From contig JAHPZH010000001.1 in assembly GCA_019058315.1 (NCBI GenBank), forward strand, positions 599,536 through 663,535: 64,000 nt of DNA, given 5' to 3'. Positions 2,403-32,248 of the stretch are shown piece after piece. Under the pieces are notes generated by a model. That model was given only the letters and a program-made list of their open reading frames with translations. It was not told the origin of the DNA and did no database searches. Every line of letters begins with the position of its first letter. Position 1 is the stretch's first letter. The position numbers were made by a program, and so were the translations under genes. Source of the stretch: Candidatus Helarchaeota archaeon. Its GTDB lineage: Archaea; Asgardarchaeota; Lokiarchaeia; Helarchaeales; RDOG01.

Positions 2403-3619
2403 TCACCAAAAAATAATTTATTTCTTATATTTTCAAATTGCTTTTTTGAATCTTTTAAGGTTTCTTGATGAGAACAAATAAAAGCTGAAGTTTTTTCATT
2501 CTCTCTTCCTCTAACCACAAATGGTGGAGCAACTATACCCTCTTTAAAATACTTTTCTTTAAAATCGTCTAATGATAAATTAGGAATAATTAGATCTATT
2601 TTAGAAAAATGAGAATAGCCAAGGAACTCAAATTTTGATAGCCGTTCCTCCTTAAAAATAAATAAATCTATTATCGCATTTGTTATATTTTGATTAGAAA
2701 CTGATTTTATACCCACATAAGATGTTGTTAATCGTGGGTTAATTTCCATAAAATATGCTTTTTCAGGAGTTAGGACAAAATCTATACCGATATATCCTTT
2801 TAGACCTTTTATCTTCTTTATTATTTCTTTAGATTGAGTAACAACTTCTTTTTTTAAAGGATGATTAAATGGCGTATAGCCACCTAGATAGGTTGAACTT
2901 TGAAGATCAATATTTTGGTAATTTAAAGTTAAAGGAATTATCTGATTTTCACCAATTAAAAGACTTATACTTGCATCAACTCCTTCAATAAACTCCTGAA
3001 TTATGAATTTATTTGCTGCTGACTCTTTTCTAATCTTTTCCAAAGCTTGGGGAACCTGAACTTCGCGTTGAATTACGGAAATTCCAGCACAAGCTACCCC
3101 ATCTAATGGTTTCATTACAAAGGGTAATCCTATTTCTTTTGATGCTTGAAAAACATCTTCTGAGGGTAAATCAATTGACATTAATTCTGTTTTTGGAATT
3201 TCTGCTATATTTTCTATCCTCTTAATCGTTTGATATTTATCAGTTGTTATTTTTATTGAGGATGCTGATGGTCCTAATAATAGAATCTTTTTATGTTCGA
3301 CAATTTTTGCTAGATTATATAAGATATTATCAGTCTCAGGAGCAATTAAAAAAACTGCATCAATGGAATTAGATAAGATTTTATTAAATTTGACATTAAA
3401 ATTATCTTTGTGCGAAATTTCAATAATAATGTCTGCATTAATGGGGGGATTATATGTTTTTATTCGATAATCGAGAGTTGAGATTATTTTATGCTCAGTT
3501 TTATTAAAATCTGCTAAAATGGAACTGAGCATAGCATACCCCTCACTAAGTATTGAATTAGATACAGGTTGTGTGGCACTGCCACCTCCTGAAAAAAATT
3601 CAAAAACAAAAATACGCAT
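2399..3619 (-). CDS. mfnD: ATP-grasp ligase, likely tyramine-L-glutamate ligase MfnD
   Basis: FEFFSGGG N-terminus, EGYAML, IAPE, KPLDG, EINPRLTTSYVG; gene context. Confidence 0.8.
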   Translation of the reverse strand: MRIFVFEFFSGGGSATQPVSNSILSEGYAMLSSILADFNKTEHKIISTLDYRIKTYNPPINADIIIEISHKDNFNVKFNKILSNSIDAVFLIAPETDNILYNLAKIVEHKKILLLGPSASSIKITTDKYQTIKRIENIAEIPKTELMSIDLPSEDVFQASKEIGLPFVMKPLDGVACAGISVIQREVQVPQALEKIRKESAANKFIIQEFIEGVDASISLLIGENQIIPLTLNYQNIDLQSSTYLGGYTPFNHPLKKEVVTQSKEIIKKIKGLKGYIGIDFVLTPEKAYFMEINPRLTTSYVGIKSVSNQNITNAIIDLFIFKEERLSKFEFLGYSHFSKIDLIIPNLSLDDFKEKYFKEGIVAPPFVVRGRENEKTSAFICSHQETLKDSKKQFENIRNKLFFGE

Positions 3620-3699: not shown

Positions 3700-3765
3700 G
3701 AACTTTGCCTCCACTTGATGGAGGGAGTAGGATTTTTTTCAAAATCTACAGCGGAGGCAAAGTTC
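3700..3765. repeat. GC-rich intergenic stem-loop
   Basis: GAACTTTGCCTCCAC ... GCGGAGGCAAAGTTC inverted repeat with inner GTAGGATTTT/AAAATCTAC, just 3' of the 704-aa gene. Confidence 0.6.
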
Positions 3766-3790
3766 TCGAAAAAATTAAGAAATTGGAGTT

Positions 3791-5905
3791 CTAGAACTCA
3801 AATAATTTATGAAATATATTTCCAGAGTTATTAAATTGTGAAATATTTCCCGAAAAAGACTTAAGATGGTGCTCGTATTGGTTTTCAAATTCGTGTACAA
3901 AATTATTAAGGTTCTGAACCAAGTAGTCATTTGTTTTTCCATTTAATAGAATAATAGCTTGAATATATTCTCCACTACCAATTTCAATATTGAAATTTTT
4001 ATACTTCAAACCTGTAACGGGTGTCTCCTTCTTCGAGATTTCAGATCCAAAGCTTTGTATTGCTGTTATAAAACCACTCACTAAATCTGCATTTAATTCT
4101 ACCGGTCCAAGTTGTTCTTGGTAAATTGCTAGACCATTATTCTGATGTATAACAATTACATAATTAAGAATCGAAAGTCCATAAATTTTTTCTATTAATT
4201 CCAGATTTTTATCGATATTTTCTTGTCCAATTTCAAAATCTTCTATATACTTTTCAAAATCTTCATGGTCCTCTTTGTATAATTTAATATCATAATTTAC
4301 TAAATCACGAAGTTGCTTTAACCAATCTATTAAATCAGATTCTAATTCAATTGCAGTATCTATATCAATACAACTTTCTTCCTCAAACATTCCATTTAGT
4401 TTTATACTCCATTTATTCATACTATCTAAAACTTTAAAATCGGGGTAATATTTTTTTAAACCATTTTTAATCTTCGCTATGGAAGTTGATATTTTTTTTA
4501 TTTTTTCACCATTACAACATGTATTGAAGCATTCTTTTAATTCATTATTATAATTAAAAACATCTATTATTTTCCTAGCAACGTCCTCAGATTTTTCCAA
4601 TGCTTTTAAAGATTGTTCAAGTGAAATTATAATTAAATTTCGAATATAGGCTAACAAACCTGTAGTTTGGGTTAGATCATTTGCCCAAACTTCGATCATT
4701 ATATTTGGTTGATCCATACTAAGTTTTACAACGATTTCTTGTCCTGTTACTTTTACCTTACCCGAATAAAGAGTTGAAAGTTCTTGTTTATTTTCATTTA
4801 CTTTTGATAAATCTAATGCCTTAATTTGACTGAGAGCTATATTAAATGCTTGATTCTGAGAAATATCTCCGTAATCAATTTTAGTTGTGGATTTTTTCAA
4901 AGTTTTAATCCATTTATTAATTTCATATTCAGACATTGTTTGTGGAATTACTAATGGACATTTGATTGCTATCTCTTTTGGGGGGATTGTTATAGTATGG
5001 GCATTACCATAGGCATCTTGATATGAGACTGCACCAAAAATTGTTGATTTTCCACATGTATTTGGAATTAAAGTAAAATCCACGCCTCTAGAATTATTAG
5101 GGGGCAAAATTGGAACTCTCTGTATTGAATCTTCCCAAAAAAATTGATCTGATGGGGTTAATGTAACTGAAATATTACTTATACTCATATTTGAGGTGTT
5201 ATTTAGGGCAACTTTAAACCTAATATTTCCTCCAACGTAATCAAATTCACGTTTAATGGATAAAGTGTCAACAGTTTCATCGGCTTTTGGTATATAAAAT
5301 ACTACGTCATTTTCCACAATAGATTCAATTATATTGTATTTCAATAGTTTTTTTATGTGAGGTTGGATTTGACCATGCTGTAAATCTAAGTTTTTCTCGA
5401 TATCAACGAGCCGAACCTTTTTATAGATATTAATCTGGTGGAGAATTAGTTTTGTTCTCTCATTTCTTAAAACAAGTATTGTTTCATCTTGATTCTCGTC
5501 AGTACCAACTAAGAAATACACTTTTTTATTCATAAATCGTTTACTTCTTAATAAACCAAAAATCTCTAAATACTTCAGGTGTCTAAAAGCCCTATACGCA
5601 CCAAGGCCGAAAATATCCCTTATTTCTCTATTATGTGTGCCTGGGTTCATTTTAATATATTCAAATATCTTCTGTCTTATCTCATTATCCAAAATTGTCT
5701 CTTTGGTTAACCTAGATCCCTCAACAATATACTTTTTTTGATAAAGCTTCTTTATAGAATTTAAAATTTCTTCTTTAGACTGTTCAAGATGAGATATGCA
5801 AGATTTATAAAGATATTTCAACTCAATAGTTCTCTTTTCTGCTCCAATTTTGTTAGCAATATCTAAAATATCTCTCTCTAATTTTCCTACTCCCTCACGT
5901 TGCAA
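3791..5905 (-). CDS. wHTH / Ig-like / C-terminal longin-like multidomain protein (paralog A)
   Basis: Tandem wHTH (NPGTHNREI), beta-sandwich (REFDYVGGNIRFKV...FTLIPNTCG), C-terminal DLVSGFITAIQSFGSEI longin-like motif. Confidence 0.7.
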   Translation of the reverse strand: MQREGVGKLERDILDIANKIGAEKRTIELKYLYKSCISHLEQSKEEILNSIKKLYQKKYIVEGSRLTKETILDNEIRQKIFEYIKMNPGTHNREIRDIFGLGAYRAFRHLKYLEIFGLLRSKRFMNKKVYFLVGTDENQDETILVLRNERTKLILHQINIYKKVRLVDIEKNLDLQHGQIQPHIKKLLKYNIIESIVENDVVFYIPKADETVDTLSIKREFDYVGGNIRFKVALNNTSNMSISNISVTLTPSDQFFWEDSIQRVPILPPNNSRGVDFTLIPNTCGKSTIFGAVSYQDAYGNAHTITIPPKEIAIKCPLVIPQTMSEYEINKWIKTLKKSTTKIDYGDISQNQAFNIALSQIKALDLSKVNENKQELSTLYSGKVKVTGQEIVVKLSMDQPNIMIEVWANDLTQTTGLLAYIRNLIIISLEQSLKALEKSEDVARKIIDVFNYNNELKECFNTCCNGEKIKKISTSIAKIKNGLKKYYPDFKVLDSMNKWSIKLNGMFEEESCIDIDTAIELESDLIDWLKQLRDLVNYDIKLYKEDHEDFEKYIEDFEIGQENIDKNLELIEKIYGLSILNYVIVIHQNNGLAIYQEQLGPVELNADLVSGFITAIQSFGSEISKKETPVTGLKYKNFNIEIGSGEYIQAIILLNGKTNDYLVQNLNNFVHEFENQYEHHLKSFSGNISQFNNSGNIFHKLFEF

Positions 5906-27968: not shown

Positions 27969-28045
27969 TGGCGGATAGGGGAGGATTCGAACCTCCAACC
28001 GCTCGGTTAACAGCCGAGTGCTATACCTGATTAAGCCACCTACCC
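27969..28045 (-). tRNA. tRNA-Asn(GTT), CCA encoded
   Basis: Cloverleaf; CTCGG-CT-GTT-AA-CCGAG; G73. Confidence 0.95.
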
Positions 28046-28052
28046 ATTTTAA

Positions 28053-28127
28053 TGGGATGGAGATCGGGAATTGAACCCGAGTCTATTGAGCCACAATCAA
28101 TTATTCTACCATTAAACTATCTCCACC
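28053..28127 (-). tRNA. tRNA-His(GTG), G-1 and CCA encoded
   Basis: ATTGA-TT-GTG-GC-TCAAT; G-1:C73. Confidence 0.95.
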
Positions 28128-28133
28128 AAAATT

Positions 28134-28243
28134 TGGTGCGGATGGGGAGATTTGAACTCCCGTTTTTAGATTTCAGCAGTTTTTGGCGTTCTAGTCCAAA
28201 TAATTTGGAAGTCTAAATGTCTAAACCTCTAACGTACATCCGC
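28134..28243 (-). tRNA. tRNA-Gly(TCC) with intron carrying an alternative GCC anticodon
   Basis: TTAGA-CT-TCC-A, 34-nt intron (28172-28205), A-TCTAA; GCC cassette at 28185-28187. Confidence 0.9.
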
Positions 28244-28250
28244 AAAAAAA

Positions 28251-28613
28251 TTAGAGAATTAAGGCAGGCACTGTAATAAATTGCACTGGATTTCTCTTGT
28301 TATACTTTCTATGACATTCCCAACACCATGTAATATTGTTTGTTAATGTTTCAACTTTATAAGCTGAACCGTTACACTTTCCAATAATATGGTGTCGTGT
28401 CAAGTAATTGTTTGGGTCTAGTTTATTTTGTTTTACACCGCATTTCTGACAGGTAAATTTATCTCTATTGTAGATAAATAACCGGAGCTTTAGTTGAAAT
28501 CGCCCGCAGTGTGGACATTGAATGTAACCGATAACTTCTTTATTGAATTGTTTGCATTGTTTGTATTCTTTTTTCAGACCTTTTATTGTTTTTTTACAAT
28601 AAATACACTTAAA
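28251..28613 (-). pseudogene. HNH endonuclease frame with N-terminal Zn-ribbon; start codon missing
   Basis: 120 open codons: FKCIYCK...CPHCG...RDKFTCQKCG...LTRHHII...NNITWCWECHRKYN. GAGGTGA SD upstream, but an in-frame TGA precedes the frame. Confidence 0.8.
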
Positions 28614-28641
28614 TCACACATCACCTCTTTTTGTTTGTTGA

Positions 28642-28713
28642 TCCGACTGTGCGGATTTGAACCACAATATCACAGATCTACAGTCTGCTGCCGTACCAGT
28701 TGGCTACAGTCGG
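28642..28713 (-). tRNA. tRNA-Tyr(GTA)
   Basis: C1-G72, A73, short variable loop (archaeal type); GCAGA-CT-GTA-GA-TCTGT. Confidence 0.95.
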
Positions 28714-28793
28714 TATTTTAATAAAGATGGGTAGGGTCTAATTCAAAAAAAATAAAAGGGATTGATGGTAAGTCTAATTATATTAAGATATTT

Positions 28794-28910
28794 TTAATCA
28801 ACTTCCTTAGACATCGGACTTAATACAACCTCTACGACTTTTTCAACAACTTTCATTTCTTCTGCTTCTTTTTCCGTCAAATATGCATAATAACCCATAT
28901 ATTGTTGCAA
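28794..28910 (-). CDS. Putative 38-aa microprotein
   Basis: GGAGGTGA SD, then TTG: MQQYMGYYAYLTEKEAEEMKVVEKVVEVVLSPMSKEVD*. Confidence 0.45.
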   Translation of the reverse strand: MQQYMGYYAYLTEKEAEEMKVVEKVVEVVLSPMSKEVD

Positions 28911-28970
28911 AATTCTTCACCTCCAATTTTTTTTTAAGATAATTTCTAGCTTCAATTGGGTTTTGTAAAG

Positions 28971-29041
28971 TTGCACAGACAGGAATCGAACCTGCTTGCA
29001 ACTCGTTGTAAGCGAGTCAACGATCCAACCGTCCCTGTGCA
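28971..29041 (-). tRNA. Atypical tRNA-Val(TAC)-like gene
   Basis: 7-bp acceptor TGCACAG/CTGTGCA, canonical T arm, loop CT-TAC-AA; but G8, a 5-nt D loop and a 6-bp anticodon stem. Confidence 0.65.
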
Positions 29042-29046
29042 AATGA

Positions 29047-29121
29047 TGGAATCGGTGGGATTTGAACCCACATAAACTTGATCTTCAGTCAAGCGGACTC
29101 GCCGGATTATCCTACGATTCC
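29047..29121 (-). tRNA. tRNA-Phe(GAA)
   Basis: CTTGA-CT-GAA-GA-TCAAG. Confidence 0.95.
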
Positions 29122-29123
29122 AA

Positions 29124-29209
29124 TGGTGGGGTTACTAGGATTTGAACCTAGATCACCAGATTTCTCCACATTTGGAGTCTGGAAGTCTCCCGGATTAACG
29201 TATAACCCC
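29124..29209 (-). tRNA. tRNA-Trp(CCA) with 10-nt intron at 37/38
   Basis: CCAGA-CT-CCA-A-[ATGTGGAGAA]-A-TCTGG; CTCC/GGAG helix. Confidence 0.92.
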
Positions 29210-29211
29210 AT

Positions 29212-29327
29212 TGGTACTCCCGCTCGGGTTCGAACCGAGGTCAATGGGTTTCTCCCATATTCAGATTATGTTTGATCTGAATCAGACCAAAGCCCATCAT
29301 GCTTGGCCAAAGCTACACCACGGGAGT
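29212..29327 (-). tRNA. tRNA-Gln(TTG) with intron carrying an alternative CTG anticodon
   Basis: A1-U72; 37-nt intron 29250-29286; T-CTG-A cassette at 29261-29265. Confidence 0.92.
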
Positions 29328-29331
29328 ATTA

Positions 29332-29482
29332 TGGCGGTAGGGGAGAGATTTGAACTCTCGCTCCCCGTGGGGAAGTAGATTTCTGGTAAAGTGAAATCTC
29401 AACTCGAGGGTAGGCTACTAAGCCGTTCCATTCTCACTGCTTCAATAGCAGTCTACCGTCGTAACCACTTGACTACCCTACC
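29332..29482 (-). tRNA. tRNA-Ser(GCT) with intron carrying CGA, GGA and TGA anticodons
   Basis: Long variable arm, G73; 65-nt intron 29381-29445. Confidence 0.92.
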
Positions 29483-29490
29483 GCTGATTG

Positions 29491-29607
29491 TGGCGGACTT
29501 GGGGAGATTTGAACTCCCAATCTACGGGTTTCTCCACGATTAAGTTCGGGTTACCCCAAAGCTTGAGATAAAAGCCCGTTGCCGTAACCTGGTTTGGCCA
29601 CAAGTCC
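29491..29607 (-). tRNA. tRNA-Lys(TTT) with intron carrying an alternative CTT anticodon
   Basis: 39-nt intron 29530-29568; CTT at 29542-29544 preceded by CCCG-AA. Confidence 0.92.
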
Positions 29608-29611
29608 GCTT

Positions 29612-29824
29612 TGGCGGGATTGCGGGGAATTGAACCCCGACCTTATGATTTCTGTACTACGGTCGCTTTCCTCCTTTTTCAAAGTCTTATTCTAAACCCT
29701 GCCATGGATAAGTCAACTGAACCCCTATTAAGGAAATTTAATCATTTTTGAGGTGAAATTAATAATTATCAAAAAGGGGCCGTAGTTAGACAGTCATAAA
29801 TCATAGCCATTAGACCACAATCCC
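29612..29824 (-). tRNA. tRNA-Asp(GTC) with 138-nt intron
   Basis: Strict BHB (CTGT/ACAG helix, ACTACGG/CCGTAGT outer stem); intron 29650-29787; G73, CCA. Confidence 0.88.
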
Positions 29825-29882
29825 ATTATTCCTCTTCGACTTCAGCCCTAATCTTAAATTAAAAAATGGGGATAATTTGTTA

Positions 29883-29929
29883 GGGGGCAATAATTAGACA
29901 GTCATTAATAACTATTGAACCACAATCCC
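29883..29929 (-). pseudogene. Degenerate copy of the tRNA-Asp 5' half plus intron start
   Basis: GGGATTGTGGTTCAATAGTTATTAATGACTGTCTAATTATTGCCCCC versus GGGATTGTGGTCTAATGGCTATGATTTATGACTGTCTAACTACGGCCCC. Confidence 0.75.
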
Positions 29930-29963
29930 CGTAAGATGTTGTTGGCTGAGTATACAACTATCT

Positions 29964-30028
29964 GGCTTCAGTACGAGAGGAACAATTTCACATTGTTTGT
30001 TTCTGACAAGAGGAACTTCATCATAGCC
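29964..30028 (-). ncRNA. Box C/D guide sRNA complementary to the 23S sarcin-ricin loop
   Basis: GGCT-ATGATGA-AGTTCCTCTTGT-CAGA-...ATGTGA...-GTTCCTCTCGTA-CTGA-AGCC: terminal stem, perfect C and D boxes, both guides antisense to (U)ACGAGAGGAAC. Confidence 0.85.
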
Positions 30029-30158
30029 TTGGGAATTATAGTTTGGATAACGACTTATATCCAAGCCCCTGCTATTTCGTTCTCTCATTTTCATTACCAA
30101 TTGCTACACCTCTTACTTTAATTGATTGTATACAATAGATTGTTTTCATCTGATAAAC

Positions 30159-30195
30159 TAATGATAGTGGCAGTAGGATTTGAACCTACAATCTT
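30159..30195 (-). pseudogene. 3' fragment of initiator tRNA-Met (direct repeat)
   Basis: 37 bp with 1 mismatch to 31002-31038. Confidence 0.9.
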
Positions 30196-30214
30196 ACAGG
30201 CTATTTGCAAAGAA

Positions 30215-30874
30215 TTAGATATTCTCTATTATGTATTTGGTCATTCCTTTTAAGATATATAACTCCTTTGTACTATCAATTCTCAATTTGCATACCCCAT
30301 TATAACTTCTACCGATTCCTCTAGAGCCATGCTTTTTTATGTAAGGTTTTGTAAACTGATTCTTTGGAATATTAAGTATTATTGACCAATAAGAAATCAT
30401 TTTTTCAATTTCATGATAAGAATGTAGATGAAGATGAATCTTAATAGAATTTTTATCGATTTTAAGAACATCTAAAAGAAATCTAAGAAAAATTTCAATT
30501 AATTTTGGGTCGGAATTACTAAATTCTATTCTATGATCACTAGATGTAGTCCCTTCGCTCTGATATAATGTTGTTCCTATTATCATTAGGTCTGACCAAT
30601 TTTCTTTTGCAATTTTCTGCCCTTCCTTATAATATAGTTTTCTTCGTTGTTTTGCTAGTTCCTTCATTTTGTGATGCCCTTTTTCTAGAATAGATTGAGA
30701 TTTCTTCTTCAGTCTATCTTTTTGTTCATTTGTTAAAATTATATCTCTTGTCCAGTTCGCAACTGTTCCCTTCGGTATTCCCATTTGTGAAGATATTTCT
30801 CCAAAAGAATACCCCTTTTTACGCAACCTCCTAGCTTTTCTCTTAATTTTTTCTTTATAACTTCTATACTTCAA
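30215..30874 (-). CDS. HTH plus LAGLIDADG-like (homing-endonuclease-fold) protein
   Basis: N-terminal HTH (LRKKGYSFGEISSQMGIPKGTVANW); GTTLYQSEG followed by IEFSNSDPKLIEIFLRFL. Confidence 0.7.
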   Translation of the reverse strand: MKYRSYKEKIKRKARRLRKKGYSFGEISSQMGIPKGTVANWTRDIILTNEQKDRLKKKSQSILEKGHHKMKELAKQRRKLYYKEGQKIAKENWSDLMIIGTTLYQSEGTTSSDHRIEFSNSDPKLIEIFLRFLLDVLKIDKNSIKIHLHLHSYHEIEKMISYWSIILNIPKNQFTKPYIKKHGSRGIGRSYNGVCKLRIDSTKELYILKGMTKYIIENI

Positions 30875-31007
30875 TGAACATCACTCTTATATCTCCATAG
30901 CCCAATAATGGCAGTTCAATTGTTTTGTTTCATATTCATATATAAACTCAACAAATTCTCCTGACTATCAAGTGAAATTTTCGTAGAGACGGGAAATTCA
31001 ATAATGA

Positions 31008-31101
31008 TAGTGGCAGTAGGATTCGAACCTACAATCTTTGGGTATCTCAATAGATTATTATTTATGAGCCCAACGAGATCTCCTGATTACTCCATGCCAC
31101 T
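31008..31101 (-). tRNA. Initiator tRNA-Met(CAT) with 19-nt intron
   Basis: A1-U72, three G-C pairs closing the anticodon stem; intron 31044-31062 with CTCA/TGAG helix. Confidence 0.92.
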
Positions 31102-31102
31102 A

Positions 31103-31241
31103 TGGTAGAGAGGAGGGGGATCGAACCCCTGCTCTTCAGTTGTCTAAAATTGTTTTGTTACAAAGACAACCATATAAGATTCGTCTTTGTATGACATTAC
31201 ATCATATCAGACTGACGCCTGAACCACTCGGCTACCTCTCT
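31103..31241 (-). tRNA. tRNA-Ile(GAT) with 63-nt intron
   Basis: TCAGT-CT-GAT-A, intron 31142-31204, A-ACTGA. Confidence 0.9.
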
Positions 31242-31243
31242 AT

Positions 31244-31351
31244 TGGTGCTGACCGGGGGAATCGAACCCCCGTCAACGGATGTCTTCATGTAAATTCGAG
31301 ATTGCGTTTCAATCGAAAGTCCGCTATACTTGTCCGCTATACTAGGCCAGC
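31244..31351 (-). tRNA. tRNA-Glu(TTC) with intron carrying an alternative CTC anticodon
   Basis: 32-nt intron 31282-31313; T-CTC-G at 31297-31301. Confidence 0.92.
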
Positions 31352-31355
31352 ACGG

Positions 31356-31492
31356 TGGAGGGCTAGGAGGGATTTGAACCCTCAACATCTCACTATCTCT
31401 GGCTAACTTACGCTACAGATACATTCCGCATAAGGAAGAGCATGTCTTCTGCATACTAGGCGAGCGCTCTAGACCATTGGAGCTACTAACCC
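31356..31492 (-). tRNA. tRNA-Thr: AGT in place, TGT after removing a 33/34 intron
   Basis: U73, CCA; BHB TCGC/GCGG-AA|TGT-A defines introns 31424-31457 and 31395-31419. Confidence 0.8.
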
Positions 31493-31578
31493 TATTTTTC
31501 CAATGCAAATGGTTCTTAAACCATACTATTTTTTAAAACTTCTTTTCATCAACTCCGTTTTTTTTATTTTAAATATGT

Positions 31579-31656
31579 TGGTGGACTCGCCGAGCTTCGA
31601 TCTCGGAGCCTCCTACTTGCAAAACAGGCGTTCTACCATTTTCGAACTACGAGTCC
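31579..31656 (-). tRNA. tRNA-Ala(TGC), atypical (A3-U70, A54)
   Basis: CCTGT-TT-TGC-AA-GTAGG; acceptor GGACTCG/CGAGTCC; T loop ATCGAAG. Confidence 0.85.
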
Positions 31657-31665
31657 ATTTTTCTA

Positions 31666-31738
31666 TGGGCAAGAGAGGATTCGAACCTCTGTGGGTTGGT
31701 CTGCATCCAACTGCATGACCTAATTCTGCCACTTACCC
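31666..31738 (-). tRNA. Atypical second tRNA-Cys(GCA)
   Basis: GTTGG-AT-GCA-GA-CCAAC; A32, A73, no encoded CCA. Confidence 0.7.
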
Positions 31739-31762
31739 ACTATTAAACAAATGTAATTTTGA

Positions 31763-31839
31763 TGGAGGATAAGACAGGATTTGAACCTGTGTGAAATTGG
31801 GTTGCAGCCAATCGCCTACGCCAACTCAGCCACTTATCC
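31763..31839 (-). tRNA. tRNA-Cys(GCA)
   Basis: ATTGG-CT-GCA-AC-CCAAT; U73, CCA. Confidence 0.95.
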
Positions 31840-31843
31840 TTAA

Positions 31844-32020
31844 TGGTGCAGGAGGAGGGATTTGAACCCTCGGTCTCAAGATTTCTTCTAGTATTAGGAT
31901 TCTGTTCGGATTCCGTTATTCGAATACTGTACTATTCGCATTCTGTTATTAGAATTCCAGATCGATGAGGATAACCTCAAAAAATTGTCTTGTAGTTTAT
32001 CCATACTAGCGTACTCCTGC
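31844..32020 (-). tRNA. tRNA-Arg with five tandem anticodon cassettes (TCT, GCG, TCG, CCG, CCT)
   Basis: A20 in D loop; stem CAAGA/TCTTG; on the + strand the insert reads Arg codons AGG 31896, CGG 31907, CGA 31921, CGC 31937 and AGA 31951, each in a tt-NNN-at context. Confidence 0.88.
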
Positions 32021-32021
32021 A

Positions 32022-32100
32022 TGGTGGGATCGGCAAGATTTGAACTTGCGATTGCTTGATCCCAAATCAAGAGTCCTAAACCATACTAGACCACGATCCC
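32022..32100 (-). tRNA. tRNA-Pro(TGG)
   Basis: CTTGA-TT-TGG-GA-TCAAG; CCA. Confidence 0.95.
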
Positions 32101-32110
32101 CAGTATAAAG

Positions 32111-32248
32111 TGGAAGGAAGGGGTTTCGAACCCCTGAACTCCTACGAGATTAGATTTCTCACAGACCTTGAGTGTCGTTCTTAGTATCGTTCTTGACCGA
32201 TAATAAATATCTTAAGTCTAACGCCTTTGACCACTTGGCTATCCTTCC
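32111..32248 (-). tRNA. tRNA-Leu(TAA) with 55-nt intron containing CAA/TAA repeats
   Basis: Long variable arm, A73; intron 32156-32210. Confidence 0.9.

Follow-up and report, generated by a model that had tools for sequence, protein, structure and literature searches.

The window (the whole stretch of 64,000 nucleotides analysed here) derives from a Helarchaeota-like Asgard archaeon with a genome of 5.79 Mb in 12 contigs and 30% G+C, and it carries an array of about 21 co-oriented tRNA genes, many of them intron-bearing, packed into ~4.3 kb. Metabolic genes of the host border the array, and in two NCBI Helarchaeota metagenome-assembled genomes it likewise adjoins genes for UbiD, a kinase and a flavoprotein, with the same gene order. 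On the strength of these flanks and this synteny, a recent viral or mobile insertion was rejected as the origin of the array in this genome, and the array is taken to be an inherited chromosomal feature; the related versions L036, L037 and L086 (described below) look more like AT-rich elements. The runs found to contain the array are DNA only and come from sediment and mangrove metagenomes. Two further features of the array may be recorded in passing: the tRNA-Asp(GUC) gene has an intron of ~135 nt, with a divergent second copy of its 5' half ~60 nt upstream, and an HNH endonuclease-like zinc-finger ORF, whose homologues are 69-96% identical, lies among the tRNA genes. In the source genome this ORF shows no ATG, GTG or TTG before residue 71 of the open frame and may have an unusual start or a spliced mRNA.

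One member of the array is a tRNA-Lys gene specifying a 114-nt pre-tRNA (Table 1). It begins, from 5' to 3', with GGACUUG-UG-GCCA...CGGC-A-ACGGG-CU followed by UUUA, and continues through UCUCAAGCUUUGGGGUAA, CCCG-AA, CUUA, AUCGUGGAGAA and A-CCCGU to the T arm, the acceptor strand, G73 and CCA. It scores 53.2 bits against an Rfam RF00005 threshold of 29, its cloverleaf is intact with an A-C mismatch in the D stem, and each of the two spliced forms that can be drawn from it is 75 nt long with a Lys anticodon in a 7-nt loop (CU-UUU-AA or CU-CUU-AA). This is the third Lys copy in the genome and is AT-richer than the GC-rich host genes for Lys(UUU) and Lys(CUU), the latter of which has a T-loop intron of ~30 nt and is detected by Rfam in its first 58 nt only. 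The host tRNA genes are heavily interrupted, as has been reported for Asgard archaea (bioRxiv 10.64898/2026.10.13.758758), and many have introns in the D arm or T arm, so that tRNA counts from standard tools are far too low. The same tools falter on the array: ARAGORN misreads several of its genes and calls the Lys gene Ser(aga), and standard annotation of the Rfam or ARAGORN type gives the anticodon of this gene wrongly or incompletely, e.g., as plain Lys(UUU).

Table 1. Coordinates of the tRNA-Lys gene, its elements and the related features (window numbering is that of the plus strand, as in the sequence-only reading; elements of the Lys gene are listed in their transcribed form; L033 is the array contig of G002)
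Feature	Position	Strand	Remark
tRNA array	27969-32248	minus	~21 genes
tRNA-Lys, whole gene	29494-29607	minus	114-nt pre-tRNA; Rfam RF00005, 53.2 bits
Encoded CCA directly 3' of the gene	29491-29493	minus
5' exon, tRNA positions 1-33	29573-29607	minus	ends ...A-ACGGG-C32-U33
CGGG, positions 28-31	29575-29578	minus	partner is the intron CCCG or the 3'-exon CCCG
In-place U34 U35 U36 A37	29569-29572	minus	also the first 4 nt of intron 1; invariant in 7/7 homologues
Intron 1, 28 nt, between 33 and 34	29545-29572	minus	bulges CU|U and AA|C at its borders
Inner helix, 5' strand	29563-29571	minus	UUAUCUCAA
Inner helix, 3' strand	29551-29559	minus	UUGGGGUAA
Intron CCCG	29547-29550	minus	partner of CGGG(28-31)
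Bulge AA after the intron CCCG	29545-29546	minus
Mini-exon CUUA	29541-29544	minus	C34 U35 U36 A37 of the CUU product; invariant in 7/7 homologues
Mini-intron, 11 nt, at 37/38	29530-29540	minus	3' bulge AA|A
GGAG in the mini-intron	29532-29535	minus	pairs with positions 32-35
Alternative single 39-nt intron at 37/38	29530-29568	minus	UUU anticodon stays after removal
3' exon	29494-29529	minus	A38, CCCGU, variable loop, T arm, acceptor strand, G73
tRNA-Asp(GUC)	29615-29824	minus	~135-nt intron
Divergent second copy of the tRNA-Asp 5' half	29883-29929	minus
HNH endonuclease-like ORF	28251-28613; L033:9553-9939	minus (window)
tRNA-Arg	31844-32020; L033:10219-10384; L086 ~2965-3150; L087 ~3755-3990	minus (window)	five cassettes
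tRNA-Ser	29335-29482	minus	GCU in place
tRNA-Gly	28137-28243		UCC and GCC only
tRNA-Gly of G002	L033:9940-10054		all three Gly anticodons
tRNA-Lys of L087	L087:5125-5261		~30 extra nt
Host Lys(UUU)	C10:15317-15390		GC-rich
Host Lys(CUU)	C1:253283-253385		GC-rich; T-loop intron ~30 nt

The sequence-only reading had proposed that this gene holds a switch between UUU and CUU anticodons built on a bulge-helix-bulge (BHB) motif at the 33/34 bond. A motif scanner for the strict hBHBh' form (central helix with at most one G-U, inner helix of at least 4 bp) finds exactly one such motif in the gene: its outer helix is A26A27/UU (2 bp), its central helix CGGG/CCCG is free of G-U, and its inner helix UUAUCUCAA/UUGGGGUAA counts 9 bp, including three G-U, closed by a GCU loop. 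The pairing of CGGG(28-31) with CCCG and the bulges CU|U and AA|C are thus present as claimed, with the right geometry throughout: two 3-nt bulges lie on opposite strands with a 4-bp helix between them, and in the source genome this core is flanked on either side by a helix of at least 2 bp. The outer helix is missing in the homologues G002 and L037, which have the relaxed type of motif. Recomputing the spliced forms likewise bore out the earlier arithmetic: deletion of intron 1 (28 nt) together with the mini-intron (11 nt) leaves ...ACGGG CU CUU AA CCCGU... at 75 nt, and deletion of the single 39-nt segment leaves ...CU UUU AA... When the gene is shuffled by mononucleotides, 4.7% of the shuffles contain a strict motif of this quality somewhere and 26% contain a relaxed one, so that a single copy of the motif is on its own weak evidence.

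The weight therefore falls on homologues, of which six further versions besides the source genome (G000) were obtained, by four independent routes. G002, a genome from the same order, was found by BLAST; X10 is a strain variant from a mangrove metagenome, represented by one contig at depth 3.9; a pattern that omitted the 5' part of the gene recovered two divergent contigs, L036 and L037, from metagenomes; and L086 and L087/L088 were reached via the HNH endonuclease gene of the array, and since it was this neighboring gene that led to them, the discovery of L086 and L087 is independent of the Lys features. The array contig of G002, which is also L061 (DATKTP010000053.1), is titled 'Candidatus Deferrimicrobium sp.', a bacterium, probably through an error of naming or binning. 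Other searches added little: the exact pattern matched G000 and G002 only among 400 genomes of the phylum; an IMG/VR scan returned 21 matches, all chance and non-tRNA; BLAST with the Lys gene over the phylum hit mostly T arms of unrelated tRNAs; a covariance model run on 151 genomes of the class recovered, besides G000 and G002, host-type Lys genes only; and a pattern for the cassettes of the tRNA-Arg gene (discussed below) found G002 and three chance matches in the genome collection.

Both 33/34 cuts fall at identical bonds in all seven homologues, and the helices between which they lie vary in a concerted manner (Table 2). MAFFT puts the inner helix out of register, and the pairs were therefore tabulated by script; in the five versions so tabulated (G000, X10, G002, L036 and L037) each listed inner-helix pair is standard, with compensatory changes between lineages, and the scanner gives five standard inner-helix pairs each for L086 and L087. 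The intron CCCG has become CUCG in X10 and L087, where pairing is kept via G-U. The CUUA mini-exon, followed by an intron of 10-13 nt that ends in (G/A)(G/A)AG-AA, is likewise present in all homologues. L087, which belongs to a syntenic Helarchaeota metagenome-assembled genome, additionally has ~30 nt (AAACUAAAAUGAUGAUAUUUUGAUUCUCAU) that separate its GGGAGAA|A site from the 3' stem; the segment may be a third intron, and a clear BHB for it was not found.

Table 2. Helices of the 33/34 motif in the seven versions of the gene
Version	Inner helix	Central helix
G000	UUAUCUCAA/UUGGGGUAA	CGGG/CCCG
X10	closing pair A-U -> G-C (29563 T>C with 29559 A>G)	CGGG/CUCG
G002	UUAGAUUGC/GCAAUUUGA	CGGG/CCCG
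L036	UUAAC/GUUAA	CGGG/CCCG
L037	UUAGGAGG/CUUCUUAA	CGGG/CCCG
L086	UUAUC/GAUAA	CGGG/ACCG (3/4 pairs)
L087	UUAUC/GAUAA	UGGG/CUCG

The compensatory substitutions indicate that the RNA structure is under purifying selection, and the recurrence of the motif at the same position and with the same two bonds in the six other homologues goes far beyond what chance would give. We conclude that the 33/34 BHB is in all likelihood a real, selected splicing signal at which cleavage would be expected, with tRNA-Lys(CUU) as a probable product; two genes with an EndA domain are present in the host genome, at C12:5422-5676 and C1:331438-331698. These patterns bear on two simpler views of the gene. If the array copy were a decaying or unexpressed duplicate with a functionless pattern, as might be supposed from the separate GC-rich host genes for both Lys isoacceptors, the D-stem mismatch and the extra ~30 nt before the 3' stem in L087, then neither selection on its RNA structure nor a cloverleaf intact at 53 bits with an encoded CCA would be expected, nor the retention of array position and gene order in relatives; we regard this as scarcely credible. 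The other view, namely that the gene encodes a plain tRNA-Lys(UUU) interrupted by a single canonical intron of 39 nt, is the one given by Rfam and ARAGORN-style models, and it would make the internal motif and CUUA incidental. An incidental motif, however, would not keep its cut sites, its CCCG/CUCG and its 2-nt bulge through seven lineages with compensatory changes, nor would CUUA and the subsequent bulge-helix-loop intron of 10-13 nt be kept equally long; moreover, such a cassette is lacking from the host-type Lys(UUU) genes whose introns are canonical (L068, L069, L085). The tRNA-like fold is marginally more stable in G000, and in X10 the 3'-site strand, AAAG, pairs perfectly with CUUU and has a C-A mismatch with CUCU, both of which would suit an exclusive UUU product; nevertheless, we consider this view very unlikely.

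The splicing signal at 33/34 leads to a predicted processing path that is well supported by the comparison of homologues, better than any other. Two folds that exclude each other are predicted for the precursor, according to which CCCG takes CGGG(28-31) as its partner. In the first, which may be called fold A, CGGG would pair with the intron CCCG to form the BHB, the splicing endonuclease would cut after U33 and just before CUUA, and ligation would follow; the 11-nt mini-intron, then presented in a bulge-helix-loop at 37/38, would be removed to give tRNA-Lys(CUU) with the joins ...GGGCU|CUUA|ACCCG... RNAfold was applied to G000, X10, G002, L036 and L037, and the 33/34 fold is the whole-precursor minimum-free-energy structure in three of these five (G002, L036 and L037), where its stability exceeds that of the tRNA-like fold by 5 to 10.6 kcal/mol. 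In G000, L036 and L037 the mini-intron bulge-helix-loop becomes the minimum-free-energy fold once intron 1 is removed.

In the alternative, fold B, CGGG would pair with the 3'-exon CCCG to form the normal anticodon stem, and GGAG would pair with C32-U35; the shared 3' site and a 5' site after the in-place A37 could then allow removal of 39 nt and yield tRNA-Lys(UUU), joined as ...GGGCUUUUA|ACCCG... The UUU and CUU introns share their 3' end, and so two products appear possible; GGAG, the 3'-site helix strand, pairs with CUUU and with CUCU alike. For this path the enzyme would have to accept a bulge-helix-loop closed over a large loop: at 37/38 the stem, the AA|A bulge and the CUUU/GGAG helix (with two G-U) are present and the inner helix of a canonical intron is missing, and checking the sequences by hand found none beyond the 5' bulge in any homologue. 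The 37/38 site is thus relaxed and bulge-helix-loop-like at most. The perfect AAAG pairing in X10 gets little weight, since a mismatch opposite position 34 is tolerated in the Arg genes. Two other devices were considered for this region and rejected: a second BHB excising the first intron base through CUUA, as a two-step path to UUU, would need a CUUU/AACU helix that cannot pair, and a GNRA hairpin, UUUGGG-GUAA-CCCGAA, taken as a designed switch, is weak in X10 and missing elsewhere.

The energetics speak on both sides of the UUU path. In G000 the anticodon-stem-closed fold reaches -39.2 versus -38.5 kcal/mol for the 33/34 fold, and in X10 the tRNA-like fold -36.6 versus -36.0 kcal/mol; this near-equality of the two folds was counted in its favor. 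Against it stand the disfavoring of the tRNA-like fold in G002, L036 and L037, the missing inner helix at 37/38, and the consideration that fold A would form first during transcription. Since fold B is the less stable and fold A would come first, UUU could be a very minor product in L036, L037 and G002. Since separate genes of the host already encode Lys(UUU) and Lys(CUU), the cell could strictly do without either product of the array gene.

These points raise the question of whether the gene makes CUU alone, as a two-intron tRNA-Lys(CUU) interrupted at 33/34 and 37/38, with UUUA as the mere start of intron 1 and with the tools wrongly calling a one-intron Lys(UUU). Much fits such a gene: in all homologues the 33/34 motif covaries and is at least close to strict, the 33/34 fold is favored by 5-10 kcal/mol in the three versions named above, the mini-intron then forms a clean bulge-helix-loop, the 37/38 site of the unspliced RNA is without an inner helix, and tRNA genes with several introns occur commonly in Asgard archaea (bioRxiv 10.64898/2026.10.13.758758). 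What it leaves unexplained is the in-place triplet. U34U35U36A37 is identical in all seven versions, whereas intron 1 otherwise shows no relatedness from one lineage to the next, and even the pairing partner of positions 35-37 is variable (UAA or UGA). The sister genes of the array, too, carry their own cognate anticodon in place (UUG in Gln, UUC in Glu, UCC in Gly, UAA in Leu, and GCU or GGA in Ser), and as these triplets differ among the genes, the in-place UUUA does not reflect a bias of the enzyme for that sequence. The corresponding triplet of the Arg gene is no valid Arg anticodon, and there it is unconserved (C-A-AUU-U in G000 versus C-U-AUU-G in G002). The simplest cause of the conservation of the in-place triplet would be that it reaches the mature tRNA at least sometimes. 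An exclusive CUU product would furthermore make Lys the sole elongator of the array besides Trp with C34 alone, when AAA codons would be expected to dominate at 30% G+C, and such a reading does not extend to the Arg, Ser and Gly genes with their 3-5 conserved cassettes. We therefore hold that CUU alone is possible but tentative, and that we would sooner expect it to be wrong.

The sister genes provide the wider setting in which two products from one gene become easier to entertain. Most intron-bearing genes of the array show anticodon cassettes, and the Lys gene has a strict, covarying motif. Synonymous anticodons with a purine after them are strongly enriched in the array introns: of those possible, 17 of 21 occur in G000, versus 7.6 +/- 1.9 in shuffles (0 of 5000 reach the observed count), and 9 of 10 in G002, versus 3.2 in shuffles (P = 0.0002). 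The tRNA-Arg gene has the cassettes U-UCU-A, U-GCG-A, U-UCG-A, U-CCG-A and U-CCU-A, in the same order in G000, G002, L086, L087 and L088, and these make up all five archaeal Arg anticodons. The tRNA-Ser genes of L037 (minus strand, gene start GCGGAGGTATG...) and of the window hold all four Ser anticodons, with GGA in place in L037 and GCU in G000; in L037 the hidden ones sit in repeats of the form CCGAG-A(A/G)|U-NNN-AA, in which CGAG is complementary to stem positions 27-30, and these repeats would act as rival 3' splice sites for a single 5' site. In G002 the tRNA-Gly gene carries UCC as its in-place anticodon and, in its intron, GU-GCC-AA plus AU-CCC-AU, thereby covering all three Gly anticodons; its counterpart in G000 has two.

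A reading in which each gene gives a single product cannot, as far as these sequences allow a judgment, explain the multi-cassette Arg, Ser and Gly genes, and this raises the prior for two products from Lys. We would thus put the proposal that the one Lys gene yields both UUU and CUU tRNAs at an even chance. From the claim of a switch, what has stood is the real, conserved BHB at 33/34 and the two-step path to CUU; the joint output of UUU and CUU is the part that hangs in the balance. By extension, the array might be a near-complete decoding set compressed into ~4 kb, with 2-5 cassettes per gene and alternative BHB splicing, and the intron segment engaged by the 5' strand of the anticodon stem would decide which cassette is used; this could go either way. 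The Lys gene is the simplest, two-state case of the proposed cassette array.

A parallel might be struck with archaeal tRNA genes that have several introns, some of them of non-canonical BHB type, such as those of Thermoproteales and the much-interrupted ones of Asgard archaea (bioRxiv 10.64898/2026.10.13.758758; reviewed in PMC4390854). As in those genes, short protein-spliced introns of BHB or relaxed type occur more than once per gene, also in the anticodon arm, and annotation software miscalls them. In the multi-intron genes all introns are removed to give one product, whereas here intron 1 opens with a conserved cognate anticodon and A37, and the two introns share their 3' end with a larger alternative intron. 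A second parallel is offered by the tri-split tRNA-Gly of Caldivirga maquilingensis and the split tRNAs of Nanoarchaeum equitans, which, according to that review (PMC4390854; Fujishima 2009 cited there), are trans-spliced; there too isoacceptors arise from shared pieces and alternative anticodon pieces via BHB cleavage and ligation. The pieces of the split tRNAs are, however, separate genes joined in trans, whereas the Lys pieces are all in cis, contiguous within one 114-nt gene, with the choice proposed to be made by folding, so that the gene would work alike and is not a member of that class.

A search of the literature turned up no description of alternative splicing in cis for any tRNA gene. 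Even on a conservative view, standard tools give the wrong anticodon for tRNA genes with nested introns. If both products are made, the Lys gene would be the first instance of cis alternative tRNA splicing that we have found described, with two isoacceptors between which RNA folding selects. In that event, the way in which tRNA repertoires are counted in intron-rich archaea would change, tRNA introns would gain a concrete function, and the split and tri-split tRNAs would be linked to ordinary intron-bearing genes.
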